From an uncultured Candidatus Binatia bacterium (GTDB lineage Bacteria; Desulfobacterota; Binatia; UBA9968; JAJDTQ01), in contig CBDCOS010000008.1 of the NCBI GenBank assembly GCA_965219905.1, positions 640,183 through 704,182 on the forward strand: 64,000 nt of DNA, read 5' to 3'. The translations under genes were made by a program, and so were the position numbers. The notes under the pieces are model-generated. The model saw only the letters and a program-made list of their open reading frames with translations. It was not told the origin of the DNA and searched no databases. This document shows positions 2,476-61,313 of this stretch, piece after piece (position 1 is the first letter of the stretch; every line of letters starts with the position of its first letter).

Positions 2476-2514
2476 GGCTCGCTCCTTGAACTGACTTGGT
2501 CCTCGCGCTTGCGG

Positions 2515-3051
2515 CTAGAAAGTTCGTTCGATGCTCTTCCTGAGGGTCTGCAACTGCGTGCGTACGCTGCCGTCGTAGACCTTGCCGCCGACCTCGACGA
2601 CGATGCCGCCGATAATGCCCGGATCCACTTCTTCGGTCAGGACGGCGGTCTTGCCGGTCATTTCACCCACCACCGCGGCAAGGCTGTTGCGCCGGTCGTC
2701 GGCAAGGGACCGGGACACGGTGACCCTGACGTTCACACGGCCCGCCGACTCGTCCAGCAGCCGGTGGTAATGACGCGCGATGGAGGACAGCCCGTCGAGA
2801 CGGTCGCGGGTCACCAGCAGCGAGAGGAAATGGGTGGTCAGGTCCGAGAGGCCCATGCGTGCGGCCACCTCCGCCACAATGTCCTTGCGGCGGTCCTGGC
2901 CGAAGGCGGGGTTTCCCAGCACCTTCCTGAGGTCGGGATCCTCGTACAGCTTGAGAAAACCGTCCACCTCGGCGCCGACGGCCTCCTCCCGGCCGGCGGC
3001 GAGCTCAAAAATGGCCCTTGCGTAGCGGCGGCTGAGCTTTCCTTCAATCAT
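2515..3051 (-). CDS. atpH: ATP synthase F1 delta subunit (OSCP)
   Basis: 178 aa; MIEGKLSRRYARAIFELA N-terminus typical of delta. Position between atpF and atpA. Confidence 0.85.
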   Translation of the reverse strand: MIEGKLSRRYARAIFELAAGREEAVGAEVDGFLKLYEDPDLRKVLGNPAFGQDRRKDIVAEVAARMGLSDLTTHFLSLLVTRDRLDGLSSIARHYHRLLDESAGRVNVRVTVSRSLADDRRNSLAAVVGEMTGKTAVLTEEVDPGIIGGIVVEVGGKVYDGSVRTQLQTLRKSIERTF

Positions 3052-3106
3052 CGGTCATGAACCCGGTCTTACCCCGCTTGCCTGGCGGTTTGCGCGCGGC
3101 AAGTCG

Positions 3107-3649
3107 TCAGAGGTCCCGCAACTGTCGCGAGAAGTCGTCGACCATGCGATCCTGGTCGGCGGCCGCCATGTGCTGCTGGATTGCCCGCTCCGCGGCGGCC
3201 TCCGCCAGCAGCGCCATTTCCCCACGGATCTGCTGCCGCGCCATCTTGACTTCCTGCTCGGCCAGGAAGTCGGCGTCGGCCTTCAGCTTGGCTGCCGACT
3301 CTTCCGCCTCGGCCACGATACGCGCCCGTTCGCGCTCGCCCTCGGCTCTCAGCCCTTCCCGGATCCGCTCGCATTCATCATCGAGAACATTCAGCAATTC
3401 CCGGTACTTCCGGACGTACCCCTCGGCTTCGCCCTTGGCCTGCTGGGCCGTAGCCACGGCCTCGACGAGTCCCTGGCGGCGCTGCTTCAGGTGCTCACTT
3501 ACGAGCGGGAGGCCGTAGCGCTTGACCAGCCAGGCGAAGATCAGGAAGTTGATCAGCGGGAAGAGCAGCTCCGTGATGGAGGGGGTGTGGGCTCCGTCCG
3601 CGGAAGCGGCCCAGGCCGTGGACACGAGTATGTCGGTCAAGAGGGTCAT
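3107..3649 (-). CDS. atpF: ATP synthase Fo subunit b
   Basis: 180 aa with an N-terminal TM helix followed by a long charged Ala/Glu/Arg-rich helix. Has a 4-bp overlap with the upstream b' gene. Confidence 0.8.
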   Translation of the reverse strand: MTLLTDILVSTAWAASADGAHTPSITELLFPLINFLIFAWLVKRYGLPLVSEHLKQRRQGLVEAVATAQQAKGEAEGYVRKYRELLNVLDDECERIREGLRAEGERERARIVAEAEESAAKLKADADFLAEQEVKMARQQIRGEMALLAEAAAERAIQQHMAAADQDRMVDDFSRQLRDL

Positions 3650-4074
3650 GTCAGCTTCCGGCCCAGCACCTTCTCGGCCATCTCCTGAGCCAGCGCTTCG
3701 GCGTTGGCCGAGGCCACTCGGCGCGCCGCCTCCAGCTCGCTCCGGACCTCTTCCCGTATCTCCTGAATCTTCTGGGTGGCGGCGTCGCGGCCCTGGGAGA
3801 GGATGAGGTTGCGGGCCTTGAGCGCCTCTTCCCGGATTTCGCTCTTGATCGCCTCGCCCTCGGCCCGGGCAGTGGCGATGGCGGCGTTGTATTGTGCCTG
3901 CAACTCCTGCCCTTCTTCCGTCAGGGAACGGGCCTCGGCGTGGGAGCCCTCGGTCCTGCGCTCCCGTTCCGCCATCAGACGCCCCACGGGCCCGAACAGC
4001 ACCCGCCGGAGAATGCTCCAGAGGATCAGGAACAGGACGATTTGGACCACCAGGGAATAATCTATGCTGATCAT
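3646..4074 (-). CDS. ATP synthase Fo subunit b' (second b-type subunit)
   Basis: 142 aa with one N-terminal TM helix and a charged helical stalk, paralogous to the adjacent b subunit. This b/b' arrangement is as in alphaproteobacteria and cyanobacteria. Confidence 0.75.
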   Translation of the reverse strand: MISIDYSLVVQIVLFLILWSILRRVLFGPVGRLMAERERRTEGSHAEARSLTEEGQELQAQYNAAIATARAEGEAIKSEIREEALKARNLILSQGRDAATQKIQEIREEVRSELEAARRVASANAEALAQEMAEKVLGRKLT

Positions 4075-4369
4075 GCTACGCGTTCGGTGTTGATGACGCC
4101 GGACTCGGAGAGAGCCCCGGTCATGGAAGATTCGGAGATGGCGTGAACCGAGATGCCGTCAGGTCGTTCTATAAACTTCGTCCTTCCCCTTGTTGGCTTC
4201 ATGACGTCAACCGCAGGAACGGCGTGACGTTCCCAATCGGGAAAGCCTCGATAGCCTGCCCAGTAGCTTGTTTTTACGAAGGCGCGGCGCATGTCGCGTC
4301 GCGCCGGATGAGCCGCGGTCGCAGTCTGCGGAAAGGCACGCCTCTAACTGTCAACCAAGGTCAGGCTAT

Positions 4370-4398
4370 AGCATTCGCGCCCTTGCTTGTCAAAGCGA
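4370..4398 (-). promoter_or_regulatory. Candidate sigma70 promoter for the atp operon (-35 TTGACA, 17-bp spacer, -10 TATAGC on the minus strand)
   Basis: Minus strand reads TTGACAagcaagggcgcgaatgcTATAGC (plus-strand coordinates 4398..4370). It is in the parB-atpF' intergenic region, upstream of the atpF' start at 4074. Confidence 0.3.
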
Positions 4399-4431
4399 GT
4401 GCGGAGGCGAGGCGGAAGCCGGCGGCCGCCG

Positions 4432-5295
4432 CTACACGGTGCCCATCATCATGCTCGTTATCCGCTCCAGGTCTTCCTGCGAATAGTACTCGATCTCCAG
4501 CTTGCCCTTGTCGTCGCGGGCCCGATGCGTGAGCCGGACCCGGGTGCCGAGGCGGCGCTGCAACGTTTCGACCAGGTGGGAAAGGTCCGGATCCAGGCGG
4601 TCCTCGGTCCTGGTCCGCCTGGGGGCGTTCAGCCGCTTCACCAGCGCCTCGGTATCCCGGGTGGAGAGGTCCTTCGCCATGACCTCACGCGCGGCGGCGG
4701 CCGTCATCGAACGGTCCTTGAGGCCCAACAGGGCCCGTGCCTGGCCGGCGGGCAACTCGCCACGGGAGACATGTTCCTTGATCGGGTCGGGCAGCGACAA
4801 CAGCCGCAGGGCATTGGCGACCGCGGAACGGCTTCTACCGACCCTTTCGGCCACCTGTTCCTGGGTCAGGTTGAACTGTTCCTGCAGCTCCGCGAAAGCG
4901 GCAGCCTCTTCGATGGGGTTCAGGTCTTCGCGCTGCAGGTTCTCGATCAAGGCCAGCAGAAGCGAGTTCGGGTCGGCGGTTTCGTGAACGATTATAGGGA
5001 CTTCCGAGAGTCCCAACCGCCTCGCCGCGCGCAGGCGCCGCTCGCCCGCGATGAGCTCGTAGCCCCCGGCCGTGGAACGCACGACCAGTGGCTGCAGCAT
5101 GCCGCTGGCCTCGATGGAGCCGGCCAGCTCGTTGATCTTCTCGTCGTCGAAGACCCGCCGGGGCTGGTTCGGATTGGGTGCGATCAACAAAGGATCGACC
5201 ACCGTGGGAGACGCCGCCGAAGGAGCATCCTCCACCACGGGTTCGCTTCCGGGCAGCAGGGCATCGAGACCCCGTCCAAGTCTATTCTTCTGCAT
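4432..5295 (-). CDS. parB: Chromosome partitioning protein ParB (Spo0J)
   Basis: 287 aa. MQKNRLGRGLDALL start, ParB box GERRLRAARRLG, and an HTH region. Confidence 0.9.
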   Translation of the reverse strand: MQKNRLGRGLDALLPGSEPVVEDAPSAASPTVVDPLLIAPNPNQPRRVFDDEKINELAGSIEASGMLQPLVVRSTAGGYELIAGERRLRAARRLGLSEVPIIVHETADPNSLLLALIENLQREDLNPIEEAAAFAELQEQFNLTQEQVAERVGRSRSAVANALRLLSLPDPIKEHVSRGELPAGQARALLGLKDRSMTAAAAREVMAKDLSTRDTEALVKRLNAPRRTRTEDRLDPDLSHLVETLQRRLGTRVRLTHRARDDKGKLEIEYYSQEDLERITSMMMGTV

Positions 5296-6064
5296 GGCTT
5301 CGCTCCTTCCGGCCCATCAGTTCGGTCGCCAGGCTCAGGTAGCTCTGCGCTCCCGTCGAACGGGCGTCGTAGAGCAGCGCGGGCATTCCATGGCTGGGGC
5401 TCTCGCTCAGTCGGACGTTCCGCGGGATGACCGTCTCGAAGACGGCGTCCGGAAAATGATCGCGAACATCCTTGGCGACCTGGGCCGAGAGATTGCTCCG
5501 GCTATCGTACATGCAAAGGACCACGCCCTCGAGCCGAAGGTGCTGGTTGTACGACGTCCGGACGCGTTTCATGGTGTCCAGGACCGCGGTGAGGCCCTCG
5601 AGGGCGTAATACTCGCACTGAAGGGGGACCAGCAACGAATCGGCAGCCGCCAGGGCGTTGAGCGTCAGAAGACCCAGGGACGGCGGACAATCCAGCAGGA
5701 TGTAGTCGAATCTGTATCGGACGGTCTCCAATGCCTGCCTCAACCGGCCGATGCGGTCCTCCATGTCGATCATCTGGATCTCCGCGCTCACCAGGTCGCG
5801 GTTCGCGGGCAACAGGAACAGCGACGGCATCTCCGTGGCGCAGAGCGCTTCGGTGACGAAACAGTTCTCCAGCATCACGTCGTAGATGCTCTTGTTGAGA
5901 GACCTGGGCTCGACCCCGAAGCCGGTGGTGCTGTTGCCCTGAGGGTCCATGTCCACGATCAGCGTCTTTTTCGCGGCGATGGCCAGGGACGCGGCGAGAT
6001 TCACGGCCGTGGTGGTCTTTCCGACTCCGCCCTTCTGATTGGCTATGGCGATGATGGTTCCCAA
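5282..6064 (-). CDS. parA: Chromosome partitioning ATPase ParA (Soj)
   Basis: 260 aa. Deviant Walker A KGGVGKTT in MGTIIAIANQKGGVGKTTTAVNLAASLA. 14-bp overlap with parB. Confidence 0.9.
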   Translation of the reverse strand: MGTIIAIANQKGGVGKTTTAVNLAASLAIAAKKTLIVDMDPQGNSTTGFGVEPRSLNKSIYDVMLENCFVTEALCATEMPSLFLLPANRDLVSAEIQMIDMEDRIGRLRQALETVRYRFDYILLDCPPSLGLLTLNALAAADSLLVPLQCEYYALEGLTAVLDTMKRVRTSYNQHLRLEGVVLCMYDSRSNLSAQVAKDVRDHFPDAVFETVIPRNVRLSESPSHGMPALLYDARSTGAQSYLSLATELMGRKERSHAEE

Positions 6065-6182
6065 AAGATTTTATATTTCGGTAGGTTATGGCTTATCCGG
6101 CAACTTGATTTGTAGCACGACAGGGGCGGAAAAGGAAGTCCGGTGTTTCACGTGAAACACCGGCACACGCAAGGGTCGGGGG

Positions 6183-6848
6183 CTACGACTTCCGGAACAC
6201 GAGCACGGTTCTGCGCTCGCCGCCGAAGGGCAACTCGAAACTCACGTTTCTCTCTGGGCGGAGGGCGTATTCCGGTAGTTTCTCTCGGACTTGATCCTGG
6301 ACGGCGGCGCCCTTCGGCCCTTGCATCAAGACGCACAGCCCCCCTCGAGCCAGGAGGCTTCCGCTGACCCTGAGGAACCCGTGAATGTCCGAGAAGCCAC
6401 GGGTGACGGTTTCCTCAATGGCCGGCAACCCTTCGCCCGCCAGGTCCTCGATACGGCTCTCGATCACATGCAGGCCGGTCAGCTTGAGCTCGCGCGCGAC
6501 GTGCCTCAGGAAGTTCGCCCGTTTTCGGCGCGGTTCCACCAGGTAGACAGGTTTCCCGGGAAGCGCGAGCTTGATGGGGATACCGGGGAAACCGGCTCCA
6601 CTGCCGATGTCCAGGAGGCTGCCGTGACGGCTCACCAACGGAACGACGGAAAGCGAATCGATGAAGTGGCGCCGTACGACCAGGTCTTCGTCGTGGATGG
6701 CCGTGAGGTTCAGTCGCGCACCCCAGAACGAAAGCAGGGACAAGTAGTCCCGGAAGGCTTTCGTTTGATGCGGGGAAAGCTCGACATCGAAGCAAACGGC
6801 GCCGGCGGTCAGAAGTCGCTCGCTCCTGTCTGAATCCGTGGCGGCCAC
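6183..6848 (-). CDS. rsmG: 16S rRNA (guanine527-N7)-methyltransferase RsmG (GidB)
   Basis: 221 aa. SAM-binding motif DIGSGAGFPGIPIK. Classical position between parA and mnmG. Confidence 0.85.
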   Translation of the reverse strand: MAATDSDRSERLLTAGAVCFDVELSPHQTKAFRDYLSLLSFWGARLNLTAIHDEDLVVRRHFIDSLSVVPLVSRHGSLLDIGSGAGFPGIPIKLALPGKPVYLVEPRRKRANFLRHVARELKLTGLHVIESRIEDLAGEGLPAIEETVTRGFSDIHGFLRVSGSLLARGGLCVLMQGPKGAAVQDQVREKLPEYALRPERNVSFELPFGGERRTVLVFRKS

Positions 6849-6862
6849 GCGAGGAGACGGGA

Positions 6863-8761
6863 TCAGCCGGCCTTCATCTTGTAGAGATAAAGGGAAAGCA
6901 CGGAAATGGCCGCGGGGGTCACGCCGGAGATTCGGTAGGCCTGTCCCAATGAACGGGGCCGCACGTGGGAGAGCTTCTCCCTGATCTCACGCGAGAGCCC
7001 GTTGATTTGCCCGTAGTCCAGGTCCTCCGGGAGGGTCACGTTCTCCATCTTCTGAAACCGCTTGAGACCCTGGGTCTGGCGGTCGACGTAACCACTGTAC
7101 TTTATTGAAACTTCCGCTTGGAGCGCCACGTCCGACGGGACCGTTGCCAGCTCCGGACAGAACGCGGCCAGGCTCCCGAAAGCGATCTCCGGCCGGCGGA
7201 GCAACTGTGCCAACGACGTAATGTTCCGTACAGGCGCCGTTTCCATGGTGCGGAGCTGCTCCTGCACCGGCTGTGACGGCTGGATCCGGGTGTTCTCGAG
7301 CTTGTGGGTCAACTCGGTAATCTGCTCCTGTTTCCGGGCGGTCCGGGCGTAGGCCTCCGGGGTGGCGAGCCCGATACGGTGCCCCATCTCGGTCAGACGC
7401 AGGTCCGCGTTGTCCTCCCGGAGCAGCAGACGGTATTCGGCCCGGGAAGTGAACATCCGGTAGGGCTCGCCGTCGGTTCCCTTGGTGACCAGGTCGTCGA
7501 TCAGAACGCCGATGTACGCCTGGTCGCGGGAAAGGACCAGCGGCTCGTCCCCCTTGAGGCTGAGACACGCGTTGATGGCGGCCATCAGCCCCTGGCTGGC
7601 GGCCTCCTCGTACCCGGTGGTCCCGTTGATCTGACCGGCCAGATAGAGGTTGCCGACGGATTTCGTCTCCAGGGAAGGCTTGAGCTGGGTCGGCTCCACG
7701 TAGTCGTACTCGATGGCATAGCCGGGCCTCATGATCTCGGCCTCCTCCAGCCCTTCGATGCTGTGGACCAGGTCCACCTGGACATCGAGAGGGAGGCTCG
7801 TGGAGATTCCGTTCGGGTAGACCTCCACCGTGTCATACCCCTCGGGCTCCAGGAAGATCTGATGCCGCTGCTTGTCCGCGAAACGCACCACCTTGTCCTC
7901 GATGGACGGGCAGTAACGCGGTCCGCGGCTCTTGATGACACCGGAATACATGGGCGATCGGTGGATGGCCTCGCGGATGATCTCGTGCGTCCTGGGGTTC
8001 GTATAGGTGATGTGGCAGGGGATCTGCTTCTGCTCGATCCTCTCCGTGCCGAAGGAGAACGGTATCGGGGTTTCGTCGCCGTCTTGAACCGAAAGTCTTG
8101 AATAATCAATGGTGTGGGCGTTCAAACGCGGGCAGGTCCCGGTCTTGAGCCGGCCCAGCCGGAGCCCGAGCGCGCTCAACGAGGCGCTCAGTCCCTGGGC
8201 AGCGAAATCGCCGGCCCGGCCGGCCGAGTAGTTGCGGTCGCCCACGTGGATGACGCCCTGAAGAAAGGTCCCGGTCGTCAGTATGGTCTTCCTGGCCTCG
8301 AATACTTCCCCGATCTGCGACTCGACTCCCAAGACCCTTCCGTCACGGCACAGCAGCGCCTCGACGCTGGCCTGCTTGAGGGTCAGATTCTCGCAGTTCT
8401 CCACCACCCGTTTCATCCGCCGCCGGTACAGGGCCTTGTCCGCCTGAGCCCGGGAGGCCCTGACGGCCGGCCCCTTCTTCGTGTTCAGCATGCGGAACTG
8501 GATGCCGGTCTCGTCGATGGCGCGGGCCATCTCACCGCCGAGGGCGTCGATTTCCTTGACGAGATGCCCTTTCCCGATGCCGCCGATGGCTGGATTGCAC
8601 GACATCTGGCCGATGTGGTCGAGGTTCAACGTCAACATCAACGTGTCGAAACCCATGCGCGCGGCCGCCAGGGCGGCTTCGATGCCCGCGTGTCCGGCGC
8701 CGACGACGATGACGTCGTAGATTCTGCCGTTCCCCTTGTCCGACTGTTTCACGTGAAACAT
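6863..8761 (-). CDS. mnmG: tRNA uridine 5-carboxymethylaminomethyl modification enzyme MnmG (GidA)
   Basis: 632 aa. FAD motif YDVIVVGAGHAGIEAALAAARMG and conserved MnmG blocks (SCNPAIGGIGKGHLVKEIDALGG, GPRYCPSIEDKVVRF). Confidence 0.95.
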   Translation of the reverse strand: MFHVKQSDKGNGRIYDVIVVGAGHAGIEAALAAARMGFDTLMLTLNLDHIGQMSCNPAIGGIGKGHLVKEIDALGGEMARAIDETGIQFRMLNTKKGPAVRASRAQADKALYRRRMKRVVENCENLTLKQASVEALLCRDGRVLGVESQIGEVFEARKTILTTGTFLQGVIHVGDRNYSAGRAGDFAAQGLSASLSALGLRLGRLKTGTCPRLNAHTIDYSRLSVQDGDETPIPFSFGTERIEQKQIPCHITYTNPRTHEIIREAIHRSPMYSGVIKSRGPRYCPSIEDKVVRFADKQRHQIFLEPEGYDTVEVYPNGISTSLPLDVQVDLVHSIEGLEEAEIMRPGYAIEYDYVEPTQLKPSLETKSVGNLYLAGQINGTTGYEEAASQGLMAAINACLSLKGDEPLVLSRDQAYIGVLIDDLVTKGTDGEPYRMFTSRAEYRLLLREDNADLRLTEMGHRIGLATPEAYARTARKQEQITELTHKLENTRIQPSQPVQEQLRTMETAPVRNITSLAQLLRRPEIAFGSLAAFCPELATVPSDVALQAEVSIKYSGYVDRQTQGLKRFQKMENVTLPEDLDYGQINGLSREIREKLSHVRPRSLGQAYRISGVTPAAISVLSLYLYKMKAG

Positions 8762-8853
8762 CCTTCGCTGACTTGCGGATCAGAATTCCAATTCTGCCAA
8801 ATTCCCGAACAAACTTCCACGCGACCGAGCAACCCCGGCCACGGCCCGGAGCA

Positions 8854-10221
8854 CTACTTCCCGATGCAGAACTGAGAGAAAATACGGTCGAGGATGTCGT
8901 CGTTGGTCACCGTGCCGATGATCTCCTCCAGGCTGTCGCGGGCTTCCTGCAGGTCCACCGCAACGATATCCGGCGGCAAACCCCGGTCTATCGCCCTGCA
9001 CACCTCCACCAGGTGTGTCCGGGCCCGATCCAGGGCGGCCTTGTGGCGAACGTTGGTCACGACGATCTCCGGCTCCTCCGCGGAGTCGAGAAAACAGTCG
9101 CGCAAGGCGGCCTTCAGTCCGTCCAGCCCCTGGCTCGTCAACGCCGACACCTCGACCTGCTGAAGTTCCGGCAAGTAGTCCGAGACGGCCGATGGGTCGA
9201 TCTTCCGGGGCAAATCGGACTTGTTGATGACCACGAGCCCTTGCCTGGTCCGGACCTTCTCCATCACCGTCGCGTCTTCCGGGGTCAGCGGCGAAGACCC
9301 GTCGAGAACGAGCATGCATCCCTGGCTCTCCTCGAGCCGCTTCAGGGTCACGTCGATGCCGATCTGCTCCACATCCTGGGTGCCGTCCCTGATGCCCGCG
9401 GTGTCCCACAGGACCACGGGCAGGCCCTTGAGATTGACGGTTTCCTCGATGAAGTCCCGTGTCGTTCCGGGCGTCGCCGTGACGATGGCCCGCTCCACGC
9501 CCAGCAATGCATTCATCAGGCTCGACTTGCCGACATTGGGCCGTCCGACGATGCATACCCGGACGCCCTCGCGGATCAACCGTCCCCACGCGTAACTGTC
9601 AACGAGCGCCGAGGTCCTTTCCACCACTCCGGCGACCTTGCGCCCCAGCTCTTCGCGCTGGAGCAGCTCGATCTCTTCCTCCGGGAAGTCGATGGCCGCC
9701 TCCACCTGCACCAGCGTATCCACGAGCTGTTCGCGCAGGTCCTTTACCTCCCGCGACAGCCCGCCCTCCATCTGGCCCAACGCGACGCCGGCGGCCTTTT
9801 GCGTACGCGACCGGATGAGATCCAGCACGGCCTCGGCCTGGGATAAATCCAATCGACCGTTCAAATAAGCCCTCCTGGTGAACTCTCCCGGCTCCGCATG
9901 CCGCGCACCGTGCTCCAGCGCCAGCCCGAGCACCTGCCGCACCACGTAGGGCCCGCCGTGGCAATGGATTTCCACGGTATCCTCGCCGGTATAGCTTCCG
10001 GGCTCCTGGAGATACACAAACATCACCTCGTCCACCACGGCCCCATTAACCGGATCCCGGACCCGCCCGTGGTACAACCGGTGCGACTCCCACTCGGCAC
10101 CCTTGCGGGCGAGGAGCTCGGTCCCGATGCGTCTGGCATCCGGACCGCTCAGGCGCACCACCGCGATCCCTCCCTCTCCGGGAGGCGTCGCCACCGCTGC
10201 TATGGTATCGGCCCGGTACAT
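8854..10221 (-). CDS. mnmE: tRNA modification GTPase MnmE (TrmE)
   Basis: 455 aa. MYRADTIAAVATPPGEGGIAVVRLSG start, G-domain GRPNVGKSSLMNALL and DTAGIR, and the C-terminal CIGK motif (ends FCIGK). Confidence 0.95.
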   Translation of the reverse strand: MYRADTIAAVATPPGEGGIAVVRLSGPDARRIGTELLARKGAEWESHRLYHGRVRDPVNGAVVDEVMFVYLQEPGSYTGEDTVEIHCHGGPYVVRQVLGLALEHGARHAEPGEFTRRAYLNGRLDLSQAEAVLDLIRSRTQKAAGVALGQMEGGLSREVKDLREQLVDTLVQVEAAIDFPEEEIELLQREELGRKVAGVVERTSALVDSYAWGRLIREGVRVCIVGRPNVGKSSLMNALLGVERAIVTATPGTTRDFIEETVNLKGLPVVLWDTAGIRDGTQDVEQIGIDVTLKRLEESQGCMLVLDGSSPLTPEDATVMEKVRTRQGLVVINKSDLPRKIDPSAVSDYLPELQQVEVSALTSQGLDGLKAALRDCFLDSAEEPEIVVTNVRHKAALDRARTHLVEVCRAIDRGLPPDIVAVDLQEARDSLEEIIGTVTNDDILDRIFSQFCIGK

Positions 10222-10367
10222 CGAGAAGTCCCTTGACGGCGGCAGCCATTATAGCCCATCCGTCTCGGTCGCGCGTCCACTTCGGCGTTTCCTGACATGC
10301 CCCCCAAGCTCCATCCTCGAACCGCCGCGTATTCGCCTCCCCCGAAAAACTGTGTTACGTAAGGCGG

Positions 10368-11441
10368 TTGGACTGGAACGCCATGAACCAAACCACCGAC
10401 GACCTGCGAATCGAGACCCTGCGTCCACTGCTGCCGCCGATGATCCTGGTAAACGAAGAGTTGCCGATTACCGCGGACGCGACCGCGACCGTGACCACGG
10501 CCCGCCAAGAGATCGAAGCGGTCTTGAGCGGCGACGACCGCCGTCTGCTCGTGATTTCCGGCCCCTGTTCCATTCATGACTCGAACGCGGCCCTCGAGTA
10601 CGCCGGCCGCCTGAAGCATGAAGCCGCCCGCCTGGCGGACGATCTGCTGATCATCATGCGCGTCTACTTCGAGAAACCGCGCACGACGGTGGGCTGGAAG
10701 GGCCTCATCAACGACCCGGACCTCGACGGCAAGTGCAACATCAACAAGGGATTGCGGCTCGCCCGAGGCTTGCTGCTGGACCTCGCCAACATGGGCGTGC
10801 CCGCGGGGTCCGAGTTCCTTGACACCATCACCCCGCAATTCACCGCCGACCTGGTTTCATGGGGCGCCATCGGCGCCCGCACGGCGGAGAGCCAGGTGCA
10901 CCGGGAGCTGGCCTCCGGGCTGTCCATGCCGGTGGGGTTCAAGAACAGCACCGGCGGCTCCATCCAGATCGCCATCGATGGCGTACGCGCGGCGCAGCAC
11001 CCGCATCATTTCCTGGGCGTCACCCATCAGGGAATCGCCGCGGTCATCTCCACGTCCGGTAACGCGAGTTGCCACGTCATCCTGCGGGGCTCCAACCTCG
11101 GACCCAACTTCGACCGGACCGTGGTGGACGACACCGCCGAAGCCATGCGCAAGGCCCGCCTGCCGCACCGCGTGCTGGTGGACTGCAGCCACGGCAACAG
11201 CCAGAAGGACTACCGGCGGCAGCCCGAGGTCTGCGCCGACGTCTGCGAGCAGGTGGCCTCGGGGTCCGACAACATCTGCGGCATCATGATGGAAAGCCAC
11301 CTCGTGGCAGGGCGCCAGGACATCAAGCCCGACACCCCTCTCACCTACGGCCAGAGCGTCACCGACGCCTGCATCGACTGGGAAACCACGGTCCCCATGC
11401 TGGAAGACCTCGCCCGCGCGTCCGCGAAGCGGCGCTCCTGA
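10368..11441 (+). CDS. 3-deoxy-7-phosphoheptulonate (DAHP) synthase, class I
   Basis: 357 aa with class I AroG/AroF-type blocks (LLVISGPCSIHD, GWKGLINDP, LVDCSHGNS). The start may be the internal MNQTTDD. Confidence 0.85.
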   Translation: MDWNAMNQTTDDLRIETLRPLLPPMILVNEELPITADATATVTTARQEIEAVLSGDDRRLLVISGPCSIHDSNAALEYAGRLKHEAARLADDLLIIMRVYFEKPRTTVGWKGLINDPDLDGKCNINKGLRLARGLLLDLANMGVPAGSEFLDTITPQFTADLVSWGAIGARTAESQVHRELASGLSMPVGFKNSTGGSIQIAIDGVRAAQHPHHFLGVTHQGIAAVISTSGNASCHVILRGSNLGPNFDRTVVDDTAEAMRKARLPHRVLVDCSHGNSQKDYRRQPEVCADVCEQVASGSDNICGIMMESHLVAGRQDIKPDTPLTYGQSVTDACIDWETTVPMLEDLARASAKRRS

Positions 11442-11556
11442 ACGACTCCGCTCCGACGCCACGTCCGGGTGTCCCGTCCCGCCTCATTCCTCATCGGTCT
11501 GCCGGTCTTTCCCGTACAGGGAGATGAAGTACATGAGGGCGCCGGGGGTCGCTGTC

Positions 11557-29823: not shown

Positions 29824-29844
29824 CCGTGTGCCCCGCCCAACACT

Positions 29845-29876
29845 CCGTCATTCCCGCGCAAGCGGGAATCCAGGGG
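29845..29876. repeat. Single unit of the palindromic interspersed repeat family (ccgtcattcccgcgcaagcgggaatccagggg)
   Basis: Core hairpin TTCCCGCG-caa-GCGGGAA. Same family as 31308.., 32641.., 45285.., 53778.. and 55159... Confidence 0.8.
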
Positions 29877-29894
29877 TGGTGGTGACGTTTTGAC

Positions 29895-31163: not shown

Positions 31164-31307
31164 GACAACCACGAGGACACATTGCCCTCACCGTTGGTAC
31201 GAAATGGCGACAGCCCCCACGCGGTCATTCTCCCACTCTCCGTCATGCTCGCGAAACAGTCTGTGGCAACACCCCGCTCACACAGAACATGGCACAGCCA
31301 CCCCGAA

Positions 31308-31590
31308 CCGTCATTCCCGCAGCTTTTCCGTCATTCCCGCGGAAGCGGGAATCCAGGGGCGGAGAGGGGCCAAACGGGCGTATTCCCCGCCTCACCCCGC
31401 CTGGATTCCCGCTTTCGCGGGAATGACGGAGGGGAGCGGAGGATGACGGCTCGGGGCGTTAGCGACACTTCGTATCCGAGTGGAGTCTTGACACAGCTTC
31501 TTCGCGGGAATGACGGCAAGAGCCGTCGATGCTATCTCCTATCCGAGCGCAGTCTTGGTACAGCCTGGGAAGCGGGAATCCTGGGACGCG
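31308..31590. repeat. Cluster of the palindromic repeat family: a partial unit plus one complete ~100-bp palindromic element (31330-31429), followed by further half-units
   Basis: ccgtcattcccgcggaagcgggaatccaggggcgg ... ccgcctggattcccgctttcgcgggaatgacgg. The arms are reverse complements and each arm has its own TTCCCGCG/CGCGGGAA hairpin. Confidence 0.8.
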
Positions 31591-32640: not shown

Positions 32641-32712
32641 CCGTCATTCCCGCGGCTTTTCCGTCATTCCGGCAGCTTTTCCGTCATTCCCGCGGAAGCG
32701 GGAATCCAGGGG
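32641..32712. repeat. Palindromic repeat family: three tandem partial units (ccgtcattcccgcggcttttcc x3), the last complete through gaagcgggaatccagggg
   Basis: Direct inspection. Confidence 0.8.
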
Positions 32713-45284: not shown

Positions 45285-45533
45285 CCGTCATTCCCTTGCA
45301 CTTCCTCCGTCGCTCCCGCGAAGAGGCTGTGACAAAACTCGCCACGCGACGACCTTACGAAACCGTCATTCCCGCGAAACAGGGTGGTCAATACCCCATC
45401 CGAGAGAGACAACGTCGCCCAAAACCGTCATTCCCGCGAAAGCGGGAATCCAGGGGCGGGGAAGGGTGTGGCGGCCGCGCACCCCGCTCCACCCCACCTG
45501 GTTTCCCGCTTTCGCGGGAATGACGGAGTATGG
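45285..45533. repeat. Cluster of the palindromic repeat family: two degenerate half-units plus one complete ~100-bp palindromic element (45425-45526)
   Basis: ccgtcattcccgcgaaagcgggaatccaggggcgg ... ggtttcccgctttcgcgggaatgacgg. Arms are reverse complements. Confidence 0.8.
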
Positions 45534-45597
45534 GGCGGGAAGGACGATTCGGTAGCCGTTGCCCTCCCCCTCACACCGCGGGCTGCGGCCGGTATCG

Positions 45598-53777: not shown

Positions 53778-53843
53778 CCGTCATTCCCGCCTCCCCTCCC
53801 GTCATTCCCGCCTCCCTCCCGTCATTCCCGCGGAAGCGGGAAT
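53778..53843. repeat. Palindromic repeat family: two degenerate units plus the left 25 bp of a full element cut by the IS3 insertion
   Basis: ccgtcattcccgcctcccctcccgtcattcccgcctccctcccgtcattcccgcggaagcgggaat | IS. Confidence 0.8.
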
Positions 53844-53882
53844 TGAACCGCTCCGGGTTTACCGGAGACGGAATAGAGTGAG

Positions 53883-55108
<1,226 letters not shown>

Positions 55109-55158
55109 GACCCCATCCTCTCAAAGAGTTGGGTCTCCGGTAAACCCGGGGCGGTTCA

Positions 55159-55280
55159 GAATCCAGAGGCGGTGGTGTGGCGGCTCAATTACCCCGGCCC
55201 CACTCAGCCTGGATTCCCGCTTGCGCGGGAATGACGGAGGATGCGCGATCAGGGGCGGCAATCCAGGGGCGGCGGAGGGG
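55159..55280. repeat. Palindromic repeat family: right ~79 bp of the element split by the IS3 (55159-55237), plus an extra partial unit
   Basis: gaatccagaggcgg...cctggattcccgcttgcgcgggaatgacgg then ...caggggcggcaatccaggggcgg. Confidence 0.8.
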
Positions 55281-55385
55281 CAAAACGCGGGTCCGTACAA
55301 AATGGGCGACATTTCACGGTGTTAGCCGGTGCCCACTTCGCGTCGGCGCGACAGAGTCAGCCTTGCGGCGTCCTTTGACTTTCTC

Positions 55386-55582
55386 GTGTTGACATGTATG
55401 GTGATTCTTGAAGCACCGTTCGGATGCACGTCACCAATGTCGGTACAGGCCGGGAAGCGCACCGCATACATCAAGGTAACCCGTGTTGACATGTATGGTG
55501 ATTTTTTGAAGCCCCGTTCAGGAGGAGGGCACCAATGTCGGCACCGGCCGGGAAGCGCACCGCATACGTCAAGGTAACGCTC
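55386..55582 (+). repeat. Tandem direct duplication (97 bp + ~100 bp, ~85% identical) of the integrase promoter / 5' coding region
   Basis: Copy 1 is gtgttgacatgtatggtgattcttgaagcaccgttcggatgcacgtcaccaatgtcggtacaggccgggaagcgcaccgcatacatcaaggtaacccg. Copy 2 is gtgttgacatgtatggtgattttttgaagccccgttcaggaggagggcaccaATGtcggcaccggccgggaagcgcaccgcatacgtcaaggtaacgctc. Only copy 2 keeps the AGGAGG RBS. Confidence 0.8.
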
Positions 55583-56917
55583 AACAAGCGCAACGTCGAG
55601 TCCCTCAAATCCGCGGAGAAACCCTTCATCGCGTGGGACGACAAATTGACCGGTTTCGGCCTTCGAGTCCAGCCTACCGGCGTTCGCTCCTATATCGTCA
55701 ACTACCGTGTCGGCGCCGGCGGGCGAAAGGCCGCCAACCGGCGCCTGGTCATAGGACGCCACGGACGTGTGACCGCCGACCAGGCGCGGCGCCTCGCCCA
55801 GGAGACGCTGGGGCGCGTTGCCGCCGGTGACGATCCCGCAACGGAGCGTAGCCATAGCAGAACTGTTCCCACCTTGCGCGAGGCCTTCGAGGAGTACCTC
55901 GCCGCCGGGCCGAAGCGCAAGGAGAGTACTGTCGCCGTTTACCGCCGCATCGTTTACTACAATCTTGGCGCGTGGGTCGACCGCACGCTGGACAGCATTG
56001 ACCGGCGCGACGTGGAGAAGTGCTTCCTCCGGCTCACGAGCGAATCCGGATGGGTGCAGGCCAACAGCGCCATGAAGATGCTGCGTGTGCTCTACCGCCG
56101 CCATTGCATCGACTTCCAGGGGCTGCACAACCCGGTCGACCAGTGGCGCGCGGCCGGCGGGCGGCCCCACCGCCCGCGGCGGCGCACGATCCAGCCCCCG
56201 GCCGAGGTGCTGCCGCGCTGGTACCGGGGCATCGAGACCGCGGTGCCCAACCCGGTCGCACGCGATGCCTTCCGTTTCGGCCTTTACACCGGCATGCGGC
56301 GAGCCGAGGTCTTCGGCCTGGAATGGGCCCGCATCGACCTGGACGGGATGACTTTCCGGGTCGAGGACACCAAGACCGGCGAGCCGTTGGAACTCCCCGT
56401 CACCCGCCAACTCACCGCCATCCTTCAGCACCGTTTCGCCGAGCGCGAGCGTTTTCCCGAGCATAGCCGGAGTTGGGTGTTCCCGTCCGAAACTGCCGGG
56501 TCGGGACACATCAACAGCGGAACGCAGTACCTGAATGCGCGGATCAGCGAGGCGGGCGGGGCGAAGTTCTGGTTCCATGCGTTGCGCAACTGCTTCATCA
56601 CCGTCGCCAACCGCGACCTGATGCTGCCGGTGAGCCTGACCAAGCGGCTGGTCAACCATGCGAGGTCTCATGACGTGACCGAAGGCTACGCCGCCGACTG
56701 GACGACGGAGCAGCTTCGCGACGCCGCCCAACGCATCGCCGATCGTATCGACGAGTTGATTCGCGCGGGCGTCCCGACGCGGGAGGCTGGTTCGCGGGCT
56801 GAGAACGTCGTACCCGGGTATGGCGACCTTGCCGTCGGAAGCACCGCAGGACTGGCCCAAGTTTCAGTGCGCGAACCCTCTCGCTCATCGCCCGGTTCCC
56901 CGACCGGCCCCCTCTAG
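55535..56917 (+). CDS. int: Tyrosine-type site-specific recombinase / phage P4-like integrase (N-terminal DUF4102 arm-binding domain)
   Basis: 460 aa. The N-terminus LTGFGLRVQPTGVRSYIVNYRVGAGGRKAANRRLVIGRHGRVTADQARRLAQE is the P4-type integrase arm-binding domain. The C-terminal catalytic region has FHALRNCFIT (active-site R) and LVNHARSHDVTEGY (H and catalytic Y). Confidence 0.85.
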   Translation: MSAPAGKRTAYVKVTLNKRNVESLKSAEKPFIAWDDKLTGFGLRVQPTGVRSYIVNYRVGAGGRKAANRRLVIGRHGRVTADQARRLAQETLGRVAAGDDPATERSHSRTVPTLREAFEEYLAAGPKRKESTVAVYRRIVYYNLGAWVDRTLDSIDRRDVEKCFLRLTSESGWVQANSAMKMLRVLYRRHCIDFQGLHNPVDQWRAAGGRPHRPRRRTIQPPAEVLPRWYRGIETAVPNPVARDAFRFGLYTGMRRAEVFGLEWARIDLDGMTFRVEDTKTGEPLELPVTRQLTAILQHRFAERERFPEHSRSWVFPSETAGSGHINSGTQYLNARISEAGGAKFWFHALRNCFITVANRDLMLPVSLTKRLVNHARSHDVTEGYAADWTTEQLRDAAQRIADRIDELIRAGVPTREAGSRAENVVPGYGDLAVGSTAGLAQVSVREPSRSSPGSPTGPL

Positions 56918-57149: not shown

Positions 57150-57338
57150 CATAATGTTTTGGTTAAGGAGCCGTCACGGCACTGGAAACGGAAATGAAAA
57201 GATCAACAAGGAGGTCGCGATGCCAGTGTTCATAGCGAATAGACAGTGGGTGGCCGTTCTCTTGGCGGTGTTCATGGCGGTCGCTTTGAGCGCTTGCGGT
57301 GGCGGCGGCAGCACTAGTGCCCCTCAGATGCCGGAGCC
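57150..57338 (+). repeat. Inverted repeat arm A: 189 bp, 100% identical to 63565-63753 (reverse complement); covers a CATAAT -10-like hexamer, the AAGGAGG RBS, the ATG and the first 40 codons (signal peptide + lipobox) of the lipoprotein
   Basis: Base-by-base comparison of 57150-57338 with the reverse complement of 63565-63753. Both flanks diverge immediately outside. Confidence 0.85.
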
Positions 57339-58938
57339 GGGGCCGATGCCTGACCCGCAAATGGCCTGCGAGGATGCGGGCGGCCGGTATAACGCCGACG
57401 GAACGTGCACCTCGGCTGAGGATCTCGCGGCGGAACAACTGGCGATGGAGCGCGGGGCTATCAGCACGGCCATCACGGCGGCAAGCACCGCGGTCAACGC
57501 CGTGAACAACGACTCCACCGATGCCCAGGTGACCGCCGCCGATACGGCGATCACGAACGCCATAAACGCAATCGCGGCCGCGGCCAATGTTCCGGCCGAA
57601 GAGAAAGCCGCGAACACCGAGACGGTCAATGCGCTCGCAACCCAACTTTCCGGTGCCAAGATGGCCCGCATGACCGCCATGGATGACGCCCAGAAGGCCG
57701 CGGATATGGCCATGGCCGTCACAGCGGCGAAGCTGTATGCGGGGATCGATCCGCAGAATGGCGCCACCGCAACTGTGGCCGCCGGTACTGCTCTGCTCGC
57801 AGGGGAGCGGGCCGCCGCCTACAACAACGCCGACCAGCCCAGCGCCGGCACCAGTGCCGACACACGCATCATGGTGGGCATCGAGACCGCTGCCGTCGTC
57901 GCCCTGTCGGAAGACAAAAAGACGATGGTCGCCGACAACCACGGCTGGGCAGGCAAGCGGTACGCCGACCCCGCCGGCGGTGACAGCTATGAGGCTGTCG
58001 TATACTCGAATGTCGGCGAGCCGACGATGGGCAAGAAGTTCGGCGGCGCGGCAGCAAACGACGAGTTCGAGTACGCATTGACCAACGGAGCGCTCCCGTC
58101 CAACACAGCTTGGGTGGCCTCGAGAGTAGCTCTCACGGGCGTCACCCGGACTGCCGGCACGGAAACGTTCAAGTTGCCGACCCCAAATCCGAGCGGCGCG
58201 GTGAACATCCTCGTCCCCGGCAGCTATCACGGCGTGTCCGGCACCTACAGTTGCGTGCCTAGCGCTCCCGCCAACGGTTGTTCGGCTGCGGTAGCCGCAA
58301 AAGGCTTCACGCTTGTGACCACCGGCGGCGACGCCTGGACCTTCACGCCCACCGACGCAAACGCCAGAGTCACAGACACCCCGGACGCCGCTTACGCCTC
58401 GTACGGCTGGTGGATCCACAAGACCGAGAACGGCAAGACCTTCATCGCGAGCGCATTCACGGATGAAAAGGGTACGGTTGATGCTGCCTCAGGTCTCGAC
58501 ACCTTGCAGGGAACGGCGACGTACATGGGCGGCGCGGCCGGCAAGTACGCTCTCAGCAGTTCGACAGGCGGCACCAACGACGCCGGTCACTTCACCGCGA
58601 AGGCGACGCTTGAGGCCGATTTCAGTGACAACTCGGTCACGGGCACCATCGACAACTTCATGGGTGCGGATGGTGAGACGCGAGACTGGTCAGTCGAGTT
58701 GAAGAAAAACACGATCGGAGCTACTGGGCCGATCAGTAGCGACGGTACCGCCGCCGCCGATGGAGCGAAAACGGTCTGGACCATCGGCGGAACGGCCGCT
58801 GGTGCTGCCGGCGGGTGGACCGGGGCTCTCAGGGACAACGGTACCGACGGGGTTCCGAAGGTCGCGACCGGAACGTTCTACTCGGAGTTCGAAACAGCAG
58901 GCAAAATGGTTGGCGCGTTCGGTGTGAATAAGCAGTAG
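57220..58938 (+). CDS. Surface lipoprotein with a TbpB/fHbp-like C-terminal beta-barrel domain (paralog 1)
   Basis: Strong RBS aaggaggtcgcgATG. Signal MPVFIANRQWVAVLLAVFMAVALSAC with lipobox LSAC plus a GGGGS linker. The mid region is Ala-rich and helical. The C-terminal ~150 aa (GTATYMGGAAGKY...GHFTAKATLEADFSDNSVTGTIDNFMG...TFYSEFETAGKMVGAFGVNKQ*) resembles the 8-strand barrel of neisserial fHbp/TbpB-type SLAM-dependent lipoproteins. Confidence 0.65.
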   Translation: MPVFIANRQWVAVLLAVFMAVALSACGGGGSTSAPQMPEPGPMPDPQMACEDAGGRYNADGTCTSAEDLAAEQLAMERGAISTAITAASTAVNAVNNDSTDAQVTAADTAITNAINAIAAAANVPAEEKAANTETVNALATQLSGAKMARMTAMDDAQKAADMAMAVTAAKLYAGIDPQNGATATVAAGTALLAGERAAAYNNADQPSAGTSADTRIMVGIETAAVVALSEDKKTMVADNHGWAGKRYADPAGGDSYEAVVYSNVGEPTMGKKFGGAAANDEFEYALTNGALPSNTAWVASRVALTGVTRTAGTETFKLPTPNPSGAVNILVPGSYHGVSGTYSCVPSAPANGCSAAVAAKGFTLVTTGGDAWTFTPTDANARVTDTPDAAYASYGWWIHKTENGKTFIASAFTDEKGTVDAASGLDTLQGTATYMGGAAGKYALSSSTGGTNDAGHFTAKATLEADFSDNSVTGTIDNFMGADGETRDWSVELKKNTIGATGPISSDGTAAADGAKTVWTIGGTAAGAAGGWTGALRDNGTDGVPKVATGTFYSEFETAGKMVGAFGVNKQ

Positions 58939-58963
58939 TTGCTGATCATCCTTCCTGCTCAGG

Positions 58964-59002
58964 TGAGGGCGGCGGCTTTGGTCGCCGCCCTTTCTCTTTC
59001 CT
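58964..59002 (+). terminator. Intrinsic terminator of lipoprotein gene 1 (gggcggcggctttggtcgccgccc stem-loop followed by a T-rich tract tttctctttcc)
   Basis: Direct inspection. A homologous copy follows lipoprotein gene 2. Confidence 0.55.
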
Positions 59003-59120
59003 CCAATGGCCGCCGTCGCTTGAACCTCGCCTGATCCCGTTTAGCGTGGCTGCAACCCTCGGAGTCCTCTCGCTCTGAGCGTCCGGCACCGAACCCATCG
59101 GCCCCGGGTTCCGCGAACCC

Positions 59121-59410
59121 TGTCGTGTCATATATGGTCCGCTCCGCTTGGCAAGGATCTGTTTGGGTGAGGAGGCAGGTCAGTTGCAGTCATATATCCG
59201 GCCTCTCGATGGGAGCGTCTCCGCTTCCGGGCCCTGATGGATTCCGCACACGCCCGCCTCAACAACTGAGCGGTCTCGAAGACCGTGACATTGACCAGGC
59301 TCTGGGCGTGCCGGATCGACCTGTCTGCCATCATTCCACTGCACCTTGCGCAACTTGGAGGTTTCCGAGTTCTTCCCATCTTGCTGGGCGTTTCTGGGTT
59401 GACACTGACA
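59121..59410 (+). repeat. 290-bp element X copy A with ~10-bp terminal inverted repeats (TGTCrrTGTC ... GACACTGACA); ~95% identical to copy B in inverted orientation; MITE-like or IS-terminus-derived
   Basis: Left end tgtcgtgtcatatatggtcc, right end ctgggttgacactgaca. The reverse complement of 61039-61313 aligns over ~275 bp with a few mismatches. Confidence 0.5.
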
Positions 59411-59615
59411 CTCCGCAACAACCGAATCCACTGTTGTCAATGGCAACCGAAAACTGCTCATTTTTGGCAATCAAAAACTGCACATTCCGAGAAGGGCGCC
59501 GGTACGGGTCTGACGCTCTTCGGTTGGTTTCGGTGGGGCGAGAGGGGTTGGACGGAGGAAGCGTAGCGACCGGAGTCCAATCCCTCTCGCGTGCCGGATC
59601 GGCAGGCCCAGCCGT

Positions 59616-60413
59616 TCACAGCGCGACCCCCTGGCCGGACTGCTCGGACTCGGGTCGCATCAGGTTCCGATGCTCTCGCATCCGGTAGCTGTTGCCGCGG
59701 ATGTTGACGATGTGGCAGTGGTGCAGCAGCCGATCGATGAGGGCCGCGGCCATCACCTCGTCGCCGAGGACACTGCCCCATTCCTCGAAGCCCTTGTTGG
59801 AGGTGAGCACGGTGGAGGCGCGCTCGTGGCGGGCGTTGATGAGCTGGAAGAAGAGCACGGCGCCGTCCTGGTTCACCGGCAGGTAGCCGATCTCGTCCAC
59901 CACGAGCAAAGCGGGATGAGTGAGGACCCGCAGCCGGCGGGACAACTCGCCGGCTGCCTTGGCCTCCATCAGGGACTCGATCAGTCCCGCGAGGGTTCCG
60001 TAGTAGACGCGGCGGCCGGCCTGGGCGGCGGTGATGGCGAGGCTTATGGCGAGATGGGTCTTCCCGACACCTGGCGGGCCGAGCAGGATGACGTTCTCGC
60101 GTCGGTCCACGAACCCGAGTTCGTGCAGGCTCTCGATCTGCTCACGCTTGATGCTGGGCTGGAAGGCGAAGTCGAACTGGCCCAGGGTCTTCACGGCCGG
60201 CAGCCGCGACGAGCGCATGGCGGCCTGCAGGCGGCGGTTGTTGCGAAGCCCTATCTGGGCGTCCAGCAACTGCTCGATGGCCTCGGCCGCGGACACCGCG
60301 CCGCCGTCGGCCTGGGCCAGGATGCCGTCCACGGCTTCCAGAGCGCCGGGCATCTTGAGGTCGGCGAGCATCTCCCGCAGCCGGTCGCGCCGGGTGCCTG
60401 TCTCGGCCCTCAT
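59616..60413 (-). CDS. istB: IS21-family helper ATPase IstB
   Basis: 266 aa. Walker A NVILLGPPGVGKTHLAISLA and Walker B LLVVDEIGYLP. The start overlaps the istA stop. Confidence 0.85.
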   Translation of the reverse strand: MRAETGTRRDRLREMLADLKMPGALEAVDGILAQADGGAVSAAEAIEQLLDAQIGLRNNRRLQAAMRSSRLPAVKTLGQFDFAFQPSIKREQIESLHELGFVDRRENVILLGPPGVGKTHLAISLAITAAQAGRRVYYGTLAGLIESLMEAKAAGELSRRLRVLTHPALLVVDEIGYLPVNQDGAVLFFQLINARHERASTVLTSNKGFEEWGSVLGDEVMAAALIDRLLHHCHIVNIRGNSYRMREHRNLMRPESEQSGQGVAL

Positions 60414-61038: not shown

Positions 61039-61313
61039 GAAACGCCCAGCAAGATGGGAAGAACTCGGAAACCTCCAAGTTGCGCAAGGTGAAGTGGAAT
61101 GATGGCAGACAGGTCGATCCGGAACGCCCAGAGCCTGGTCAATGTCACGGTCTTCGAGACCGCTCGGTTGTCGAGGCCGGCGTGTGAGAAATCCATCAGG
61201 GCCCGGAAGCGGAGACGCTCCCATCGAGGGGCCGGATATATGACTGCAACTGACCTGCCTCCTCACCCAAACAGATCCTTGCCAAGCGGAGCGGACCATA
61301 TACGACACTGACA
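61039..61313 (-). repeat. Element X copy B (inverted relative to copy A); right end truncated by ~16 bp at the junction with istA
   Basis: The plus strand ends ...ggaccatatacgacactgaca, which as a reverse complement is tgtcagtgtcgtatatggtcc, matching the copy A left end. Confidence 0.5.

Follow-up and report, generated by a model that had tools for sequence, protein, structure and literature searches.

Several families of short hairpin units scattered between bacterial genes have been described. In the REP/BIME/REPIN systems, a short hairpin unit with a conserved 5' GTAG occurs most commonly as inverted doublets and in mosaic clusters, insertion sequences (ISs) target the units, and a dedicated single-copy gene is flanked by the hairpins, namely that of the RAYT protein, an HUH/Y1 transposase; REPs are specific to lineages. 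The NIME arrays of Neisseria vary between syntenic genomes, take IS insertions and had, at the time of their description, not been seen outside this genus (Bentley et al. 2007, PMC1797815). More recently, a 28-nt sequence with the neisserial dRS3 repeat inside it, the NTS, was defined and generalised as Ssn-related motifs (SRMs; Chenal et al., Nat Commun 2025, PMC11893778). It is bound and cut, only as single-stranded DNA, by SsnA, a GIY-YIG nuclease of ~95 aa (cd10448) that is inactive on double-stranded DNA and on RNA; cleavage needs three bases 5' of the palindrome and takes place 3 nt 5' of CGTCATT, while binding needs the C just 3' of the palindrome (PMC11893778). Binding or cutting by the Ssn family was published for Neisseria and three homologues, and in N. 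meningitidis SsnA lowers transformation by NTS-bearing DNA and limits the recombination of such incoming DNA (PMC11893778). Here, we analyzed a stretch of 64,000 nt (hereafter the window) from an uncultured Candidatus Binatia bacterium (contig CBDCOS010000008.1, positions 640,183 to 704,182), in which an initial annotation had noticed a multi-copy family of nested-palindromic, REP-like repeats between genes. Judged by their sequence, these repeats are members of the NTS/SRM family, i.e., 28-nt DNA hairpins that contain dRS3.

The published 28-nt NTS consensus, CGTCATTCCCGCGMAVGCGGGAATCYRG, was matched by seven full units of the window with at most one mismatch (four exact, three with one mismatch), which is the NTS criterion used by the authors of PMC11893778. 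The degenerate SRM pattern HGTCWYN(0-2)YYVSBRHN(0-5)WNVSBRGN(0-2)RNCYNB had 5 matches in the window, compared with 0.63 on average and at most 3 in 30 dinucleotide shuffles. The core of the window units, ATTCCC-N8-GGGAAT, is the dRS3 consensus of Neisseria, and it was through literature text matches to this core and to CATTCCCGCG that the NTS paper was reached. The existence of a multi-copy family was borne out by the 30-mer GTCATTCCCGCGNAAGCGGGAATCCAGGGG, which had 7 window matches at ≤ 3 mismatches (starts at 29847+, 31330+, 31398-, 32683+, 45427+, 45495-, and 55206-) vs. 0 in 100 dinucleotide shuffles; its 5' 11-mer GTCATTCCCGC had 17 matches at ≤ 1 mismatch vs. 2.4 expected. A profile hidden Markov model (HMM) of 207 external copies gave significant window matches only in five intergenic regions (29844-29877, 31239-31585, 32641-32712, 45285-45547, and 53778-55270). 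The repeats of the initial annotation are thus real, while its count of at least seven loci is reduced to five; 53778-53843 and 55159-55280 form a single locus split by an IS. The initial annotation had not placed the consensus in a named family; the family has a name, NTS/SRM (containing dRS3), and is the single-stranded DNA target of SsnA. This ties the repeat to a family that already has a name and a biochemically demonstrated partner, and describing it as a novel class would therefore be inappropriate.

In each full unit, CGTC leads into a stem of 8 bp (ATTCCCGC/GCGGGAAT) with the loop G-N-A-A, and CCAG forms the tail; the initial annotation had given the stem as 7 bp and the loop as GNRA-like. 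Both the GTC that precedes the palindrome and the C that directly follows it are invariant in all full window units and also in ~195 external copies, although the latter set was chosen by pattern, so that its invariance is partly built in. Among external copies, conservation extends over ~30 nt and otherwise only to tracts that are rich in C on the upstream side and in G on the downstream side. In all full units, the apex reads GCG-[A/G/C]A-AGC and fits the mini-hairpin DNA motif GCGNNAGC (PMC13037366, abstract); together with the G-N-A-A loop, this match is in keeping with a structure at the level of DNA rather than RNA. The single unit at 29846-29873 is predicted to form a DNA hairpin of -12 kcal/mol, and the two intact palindromes of ~100 bp, which the initial annotation had also recognised, one of -48 to -49 kcal/mol each as single-stranded DNA (z about -9). 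As RNA, a single unit is predicted at -24.6 kcal/mol and a doublet at about -83 kcal/mol.

In total, the window holds seven full units (F), an eighth one split by an IS, and ~ten 5' half units (h), all between 29.8 and 55.3 kb. The half unit h consists of CGTCATTCCCG(C) followed by 7-10 C/T-rich nucleotides. A further component, the ~67-nt B module, comprises an NTS 5' arm, loop, and CAGG but no 3' arm, followed by CTGTGTCAAGACTC...CTCGGA...GGCACC...CCCCGAATC. The doublet spacers belong to types S1 (GGGGCCAAACGGGCGTATTCCCCGCC), S2 (GGGGCCGGGGCAATGGGGCCGCCACACC), and a third type, S3. The features are as follows:

29846-29873, plus strand: single full unit, CGTCATTCCCGCGCAAGCGGGAATCCAG, with 0 mismatches to the consensus (profile E-value 1.4e-12), in the 71-bp gap from the M24 peptidase to the PALP gene.
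31240-31306, plus strand: degenerate B module (31242-31306 by nhmmer with the B module of locus L045, E-value 0.006), with the NTS 5' arm and loop, no 3' arm and a conserved body of ~50 nt; outer part of inverted repeat I4.
31308-31320, plus strand: 5' half unit, 20 nt upstream of the next full unit.
31329-31428, both strands: convergent doublet, F(+) at 31329-31356, 42-nt S1 spacer, F(-) at 31401-31428; one long hairpin, predicted at -48.4 kcal/mol as DNA (z -9.4), and 95% identical to a doublet of the related contig L122.
31432-31450, minus strand: degenerate 5' half unit (CCGTCATCCTCC...), upstream of the minus-strand unit, read from the sequence.
31451-31516, minus strand: B module with the head CCGTCATTCCCGCGAA (nhmmer E-value 1.8e-6).
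31520-31585, minus strand: B' module, with the body of B and the head CCAGGATTCCCGC (nhmmer E-value 0.0065); on the plus strand, it reads as an orphan NTS 3' half at 31569-31585.
32641-32709, plus strand: h-h-F array with a 20-nt period (full unit at 32682-32709), between two co-directional luciferase-like monooxygenase (LLM) genes.
45285-45424, plus strand: degenerate h (45285), then two B modules (45307-45362 and 45363-45424); the region has the inverted matches I22 and I25 to 31481-31516.
45426-45525, both strands: convergent doublet, F(+) at 45426-45453, 42-nt S2-like spacer, F(-) at 45498-45525, between two convergent CoxL-like genes; predicted at -49 kcal/mol as DNA (z -8.6).
45534-45547, minus strand: 5' half unit (GTCCTTCCCGC), upstream of the minus-strand unit.
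53778-53843, plus strand: h-h array (53778 and 53799) and the first 24 nt of a full unit (53820-53843), truncated by the IS.
53844-55158, minus strand: complete 1315-bp element of the IS3 family, located in the 3' arm of the NTS unit.
55159-55236: remainder of the interrupted doublet, ...CCAGAGG, 40-nt S2-type spacer, F(-) at 55209-55236.
55255-55284, plus strand: orphan NTS 3' half with an S1-like spacer fragment (repeat D10), which breaks off just before the integrase region.

Pfam agreed with the flanking genes named in the initial annotation (ThrC-like, an LLM trio, cox), finding an M24 peptidase, a ThrC-like PALP protein, three LLMs, two convergent CoxL-like molybdoenzymes, and an NMT1-like binding protein. 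The first ~11 kb of the window are occupied by a core gene block (atpG, atpA, parB, mnmG, mnmE, and DAHP synthase, 1-11500). The repeats had been described as confined to the accessory half, and this is true for the window, with modest significance: none of the ~8 intergenic gaps of ≥ 60 bp before 29.8 kb carries an NTS, compared with 5 of the 9 after it (one-sided p ~0.02, calculated by hand). Cumulative GC skew falls steadily over the whole window, i.e., the plus strand is C-rich throughout.

An exact 28-mer scan over one genome per species returned more than 119 stretches (a lower bound; taxon labels are those of the records). Among the matches listed, the 28-mer was present in complete chromosomes of Dehalococcoidia, Rhodobiaceae, Gammaproteobacteria, and Binatia, in isolates of Pseudoxanthomonas and Lysobacteraceae, and in metagenome-assembled genomes (MAGs) labelled as Nitrospirota, Planctomycetota, Acidobacteria, and others. 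We dropped the idea that whole elements (spacers, B module) are conserved across phyla, as most of their carriers are Binatia-like MAGs under varying NCBI labels, and only the 28-mer is therefore securely cross-phylum. Of 2.9 million IMG/VR viral contigs, just 13 had the exact 28-mer, which makes a phage-borne spread of the NTS unlikely; one contig with an exact NTS (L137) has an ssn homologue at 9969-10331 (HMM E-value 1.7e-42), ~7 kb from the NTS. When translated in several frames, the unit gives recurrent pseudo-peptides (VIPAKAGIQ, WIPAFAGMT, RHSRESGNPG, DSRFRGND, FPRKRESR), and open reading frames (ORFs) of 70-200 aa that run through the repeats cluster together across all NTS-bearing loci; these probably seed spurious 'hypothetical proteins' in MAG annotation. 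The clustering of small ORFs near the units reflected translated repeats only and revealed no partner gene.

Adjacent units are overwhelmingly convergent: among the 119 listed loci, adjacent NTS pairs within 120 nt were convergent in 56 cases, divergent in 3, and tandem in 6, and about half of all units belong to convergent doublets. In the window and in Binatia-like MAGs, the doublet spacers of 38-47 nt fall into a few conserved types (S1-S3). The 5' half units occur in arrays of one to five, their period being 18-24 nt; in nearly all runs found, these arrays are located directly upstream of a full unit in the same orientation; the order 'Fh' was never seen among the runs examined. The tandem partial units noticed initially are such arrays, with four occurrences in the window (hF at 31308, hhF at 32641, hhF at 53778, and, on the minus strand, hF at 45546; periods 20-21 nt), and others were found in loci labelled as Binatia, Dehalococcoidia, Nitrospiraceae, Rhodoferax, and Desulfuromonadales. 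There are 109 orphan 5' halves against 21 orphan 3' halves, and the latter never occur in arrays. B modules flank the doublets in inverted orientation; nhmmer found 27 matches, including three in the window as well as others in RHO3_bin_65 and in MAGs labelled as Binatia and 'Syntrophobacterales'. A term search of the main text of PMC11893778 found no mention of tandem repeats, doublets, conserved spacers, polar half-unit arrays, or B modules. Two Dehalococcoidia loci (L075, 6030-6240, and L088, 7340-7450) contain slightly variant full units in tandem (FFFF, period 39 nt) as well as an array of four half units, and their doublet spacer family is unrelated to S1-S3. The Binatia MAG L048 (3611-3709) and the 'Syntrophobacterales'-labelled MAG L072 (4583-4681) share an identical 43-nt doublet spacer, for which either an inaccurate label or a recent exchange of whole elements may account.

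The link with the nuclease comes from external loci. In five distinct ssn loci, lineage-specific NTS variants lie within ~15-60 bp of both gene ends, which reproduces the published NTS-ssn-NTS architecture:

L011, Anaerolineales: flanking NTSs on the same strand.
L141, Stellaceae: convergent NTSs, with CGTCGTCCCCGCGAAAGCGGGGACCCAG at 1458-1485 (plus strand) and 1803-1830 (minus strand).
L149, Rhodanobacteraceae: convergent NTSs.
L150, Desulfobulbaceae: more complex NTS arrangement.
L152, JGI metagenome: more complex NTS arrangement.

The GIY-YIG protein of the first of these matches PF01541 and has at least 7963 relatives at E ≤ 1e-10. A GIY-YIG regular expression had no match in the window and one true match among the fetched loci. 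Of the genomes with > 200 SRMs, 81% encode an SsnA homologue (PMC11893778). Given this published association and the architecture of the five loci, an ssn gene is likely present elsewhere in the source genome.

Comparison with close relatives revealed that the NTS mosaics turn over quickly, as repeat content at the same slots differs or is absent. Three metagenome contigs (L120, L121, L122) are syntenic with the window (PALP 88-93% aa identity), and the MAG 'Deltaproteobacteria bacterium RHO3_bin_65' (JAPPNF01; L026) has 89% nt identity to it over 4.1 kb. The slots compare as follows:

LLM1-LLM2: h-h-F insert of ~96 bp in the window; ~20 bp without a repeat in L122; a different repeat family in L120.
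M24-PALP: one unit in the window; a 430-bp mosaic in L122; other repeats in L120.
Downstream of the NMT1-like gene: h-h-F with the IS in the window; a B module plus a doublet in L026.

The polymorphism check between related genomes proposed in the initial annotation was thus positive (copy content differs in L120, L122, and L026). No target-site duplication was present at the one filled-vs.-empty site, LLM1-LLM2 (window vs. L122). The repeats found in L120 where the window has NTSs (3200-3460 and 5880-5990) belong to other families; one is made up of ~40-nt units in tandem (...GCGAAACAGAGTCAAAACCCCGCTCGCCCTGAGCGTAGC...) with a middle part similar to the B module, and another type reads TTCGACTTCGCT...GCTCAGGAC.

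One unit has also received an insertion. The IS3-family element carries an ALIL frameshift (-1) pseudoknot (112.6 bits), HTH_Tnp_1 and rve ORFs, and 26-bp terminal inverted repeats, TGAACCGC(T/C)CCGGGTTTACCGGAGAC, the ends of which were read from the sequence. It is bordered by a 4-bp target duplication, GAAT, at 53840-53843 and 55159-55162, inside the 3' arm of the NTS unit, and its removal in silico restored a third convergent doublet. The earlier suggestion that the repeats serve as IS-insertion targets is thereby supported by one split unit.

Taken together, we consider it probable that the repeats are Ssn-cognate single-stranded DNA hairpins in a NIME/BIME-like mosaic, that the doublets are non-autonomous derivatives of NTS-ssn-NTS, and that the mosaics are hot spots of insertion and recombination. 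An ssn gene outside the window would encode the nuclease that recognises these copies; since the window itself has no such gene, we infer the action of the nuclease on them. The doublets have the convergent geometry of ssn cassettes of the L141/L149 type, with a spacer in place of the gene, and hence look like REPIN- or MITE-like derivatives (MITE, miniature inverted-repeat transposable element). The mosaics would behave as hot spots for insertion and recombination, the units may affect DNA uptake or recombination, and any effect on transcripts would be secondary.

Several points weigh against this interpretation. No ssn gene was found in the 64-kb window (tblastn with the L011 homologue; HMM of 120 homologues against six-frame ORFs), nor in the relatives' fragments L026 and L120-L127 (tblastn and the 120-homologue HMM), and only 1 of the 119 listed NTS-bearing stretches has one within its 8 kb. 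To our knowledge, no strand-transfer activity has been demonstrated for a hydrolytic GIY-YIG nuclease, which leaves the means by which the copies spread unaccounted for. Without a 3' arm, neither half units nor B modules can form the hairpin, and the model has no explanation for either. The spread over phyla is drawn from at least 119 listed stretches and is no census, and MAG labels may be wrong. Finally, the role of SRMs outside Neisseria is stated as unknown in PMC11893778.

A bolder reading, which we regard as unlikely and put forward tentatively, takes the doublets and polar half-unit arrays as traces of single-strand copying by an as yet undescribed mechanism, with the GIY-YIG nuclease as its driver. 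In that case, the NTS-ssn-NTS cassette of ~375 bp would be the minimal autonomous element and the ~100-bp doublets its non-autonomous derivatives, while the 18-24-nt arrays would stem from the Ssn nick, e.g., by re-ligation of a hairpin-protected flap or by slippage between cut site and loop. The repeated h unit spans the published SsnA cut site and ends at the loop, which suggests that the arrays could arise by hairpin-stalled slippage or flap re-ligation at such a nick. If true, this would be a new class of mobile elements, with a 28-nt recognition hairpin that is near-invariant across phyla.

It is distinctly improbable that the units are mainly integration targets for phage or island recombinases, as dRS3 is in Neisseria, where filamentous prophages integrate into it (PMC11893778, PMC1797815). 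The synteny between L026 and the window does stop right after the last doublet, beyond which the window has the IS, a truncated unit, and a gene for a tyrosine integrase, and because this synteny ends just upstream, the integrase region may be the edge of a genomic island. However, this is a single junction, the other end of the putative island would be outside the window, no matching half unit occurs beyond 55.3 kb, and most units are located between ordinary metabolic genes. A role as attachment sites is compatible with the Ssn-cognate hairpin interpretation as an added use rather than an alternative to it.

The integrase gene itself (55535-56917) is of the arm type, and its start region is held by a 76-nt direct repeat (55405-55480/55503-55578, 86% identical); no tRNA was found near it. 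Further downstream, nested long inverted repeats (57150-57345/63558-63753, 196 nt, 98%; 59125-59394/61039-61308, 270 nt, 97%) enclose an IstB_IS21-like ORF on the minus strand (59616-61196). Two large ORFs, 57154-58938 and 61521-63749, had no Pfam match, and the region 57150-63753 looks like nested mobile elements.

We find it very hard to reconcile the data with an RNA-level function, in which the units would act as terminators, attenuators, or 3' mRNA stabilisers between genes. They are very stable as RNA, have the GNRA loop, and are placed after the stop codons of co-directional and convergent genes, but none has a U-tract and SsnA is inactive on RNA (PMC11893778). The terminator role proposed initially was not supported, as a terminator scan gave 8 sites vs. 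7.8 expected, none of them on a unit, and with no T-run at any unit intrinsic terminators are ruled out. A regulatory role for the unit between the co-directional LLM genes failed as well: the same slot in L122 is free of it, so that it is not a conserved regulatory structure, and in close relatives the corresponding slots are empty or hold other repeats. In addition, the doublets are strand-symmetric, whereas directional RNA signals are not. The suggested folding and Rfam checks found strong hairpins, as DNA and as RNA, and no Rfam match at gathering score for the units; only ALIL, inside the IS, passed, and the matches of the doublets were miRNA-like, due to chance, and well under the gathering thresholds. 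ARAGORN found no tRNA, and a known RNA family or a tRNA origin, the latter raised in the initial annotation, is thereby ruled out.

There is very little room for the units being REP/REPIN hairpins that are mobilised as inverted doublets by a RAYT (IS200-like Y1/HUH transposase). Inverted doublets that fold as one long hairpin and intergenic, multi-copy, strongly convergent units are shared features, and PMC11893778 itself draws the analogy. The conserved lead-in is nonetheless CGTC instead of the GTAG of REPs, the gene between these hairpins in five external loci encodes a GIY-YIG protein and no Y1 transposase, and the published genome-wide association is with ssnA (PMC11893778); as the cognate protein of the NTS is the GIY-YIG nuclease SsnA, the partner enzyme is not a REP-type Y1 transposase. 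Hardly credible at all is that the doublets are classical MITEs, i.e., internally deleted ISs of a DDE transposase with NTSs as terminal inverted repeats: convergent arms, conserved spacers (S1-S3), and variable presence between relatives would fit, but the filled-vs.-empty LLM1-LLM2 site has no target-site duplication, the fetched loci have no transposase-sized ORF between NTS arms (only the 96-aa GIY-YIG gene was seen between or next to such arms), and single units and half-unit arrays are not expected of cut-and-paste MITEs.

In comparison with known systems, the REP/REPIN-RAYT elements resemble the NTS in their hairpin unit, inverted doublets, mosaics, small gene flanked by hairpins, and IS targeting, and differ from it in the partner (the NTS has a hydrolytic GIY-YIG nuclease), in the lead-in, and in that the same 28-mer is found across phyla. 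Mini-hairpin DNA shares its apex motif with every full unit, and that work is biophysical and without genomic context (PMC13037366). There is also a likeness to the dRS3/NIME arrays of Neisseria: both have the ATTCCC-N8-GGGAAT core, hairpin units separated by families of 20-200-bp repeat modules, arrays that differ in length and content between syntenic genomes and into which ISs insert, and a location at sites of recombination and integration. In our material, too, 20-bp core units flank repeat modules, S1-S3 and B recur across loci, and relatives differ; the modules (S1-S3, B, h) are apparently unrelated to the RS elements of Neisseria, and the GC context is different. With the NTS/SRM family as published (PMC11893778), the window shares the 28-nt consensus, including the bases for binding and cleavage, the hairpin, and the intergenic, clustered location, and occurrence across distant phyla is common to that paper and to our scan. 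Differences are the lack of an ssn gene in the window, the host, an environmental lineage of 66% GC with RHO3_bin_65 as the nearest MAG instead of Neisseria, and three additional features, namely convergent doublets whose spacers are conserved, half-unit arrays with a polarity, and B modules.

On sequence grounds, then, the window repeats join a family published in 2025 and are not a new repeat class. What is added to this family is a NIME-like mosaic in a distant lineage, the doublet-cassette geometry, and the polar half-unit arrays. NIME-like mosaics, once thought to be specific to Neisseria, are found here in a GC-rich lineage far from this genus, where the core is the same and turnover occurs between ~89%-identical genomes, while the geometry shared by doublets and cassettes and the polar half-unit arrays provide concrete predictions on how the hairpins multiply, a question left open by the 2025 paper.

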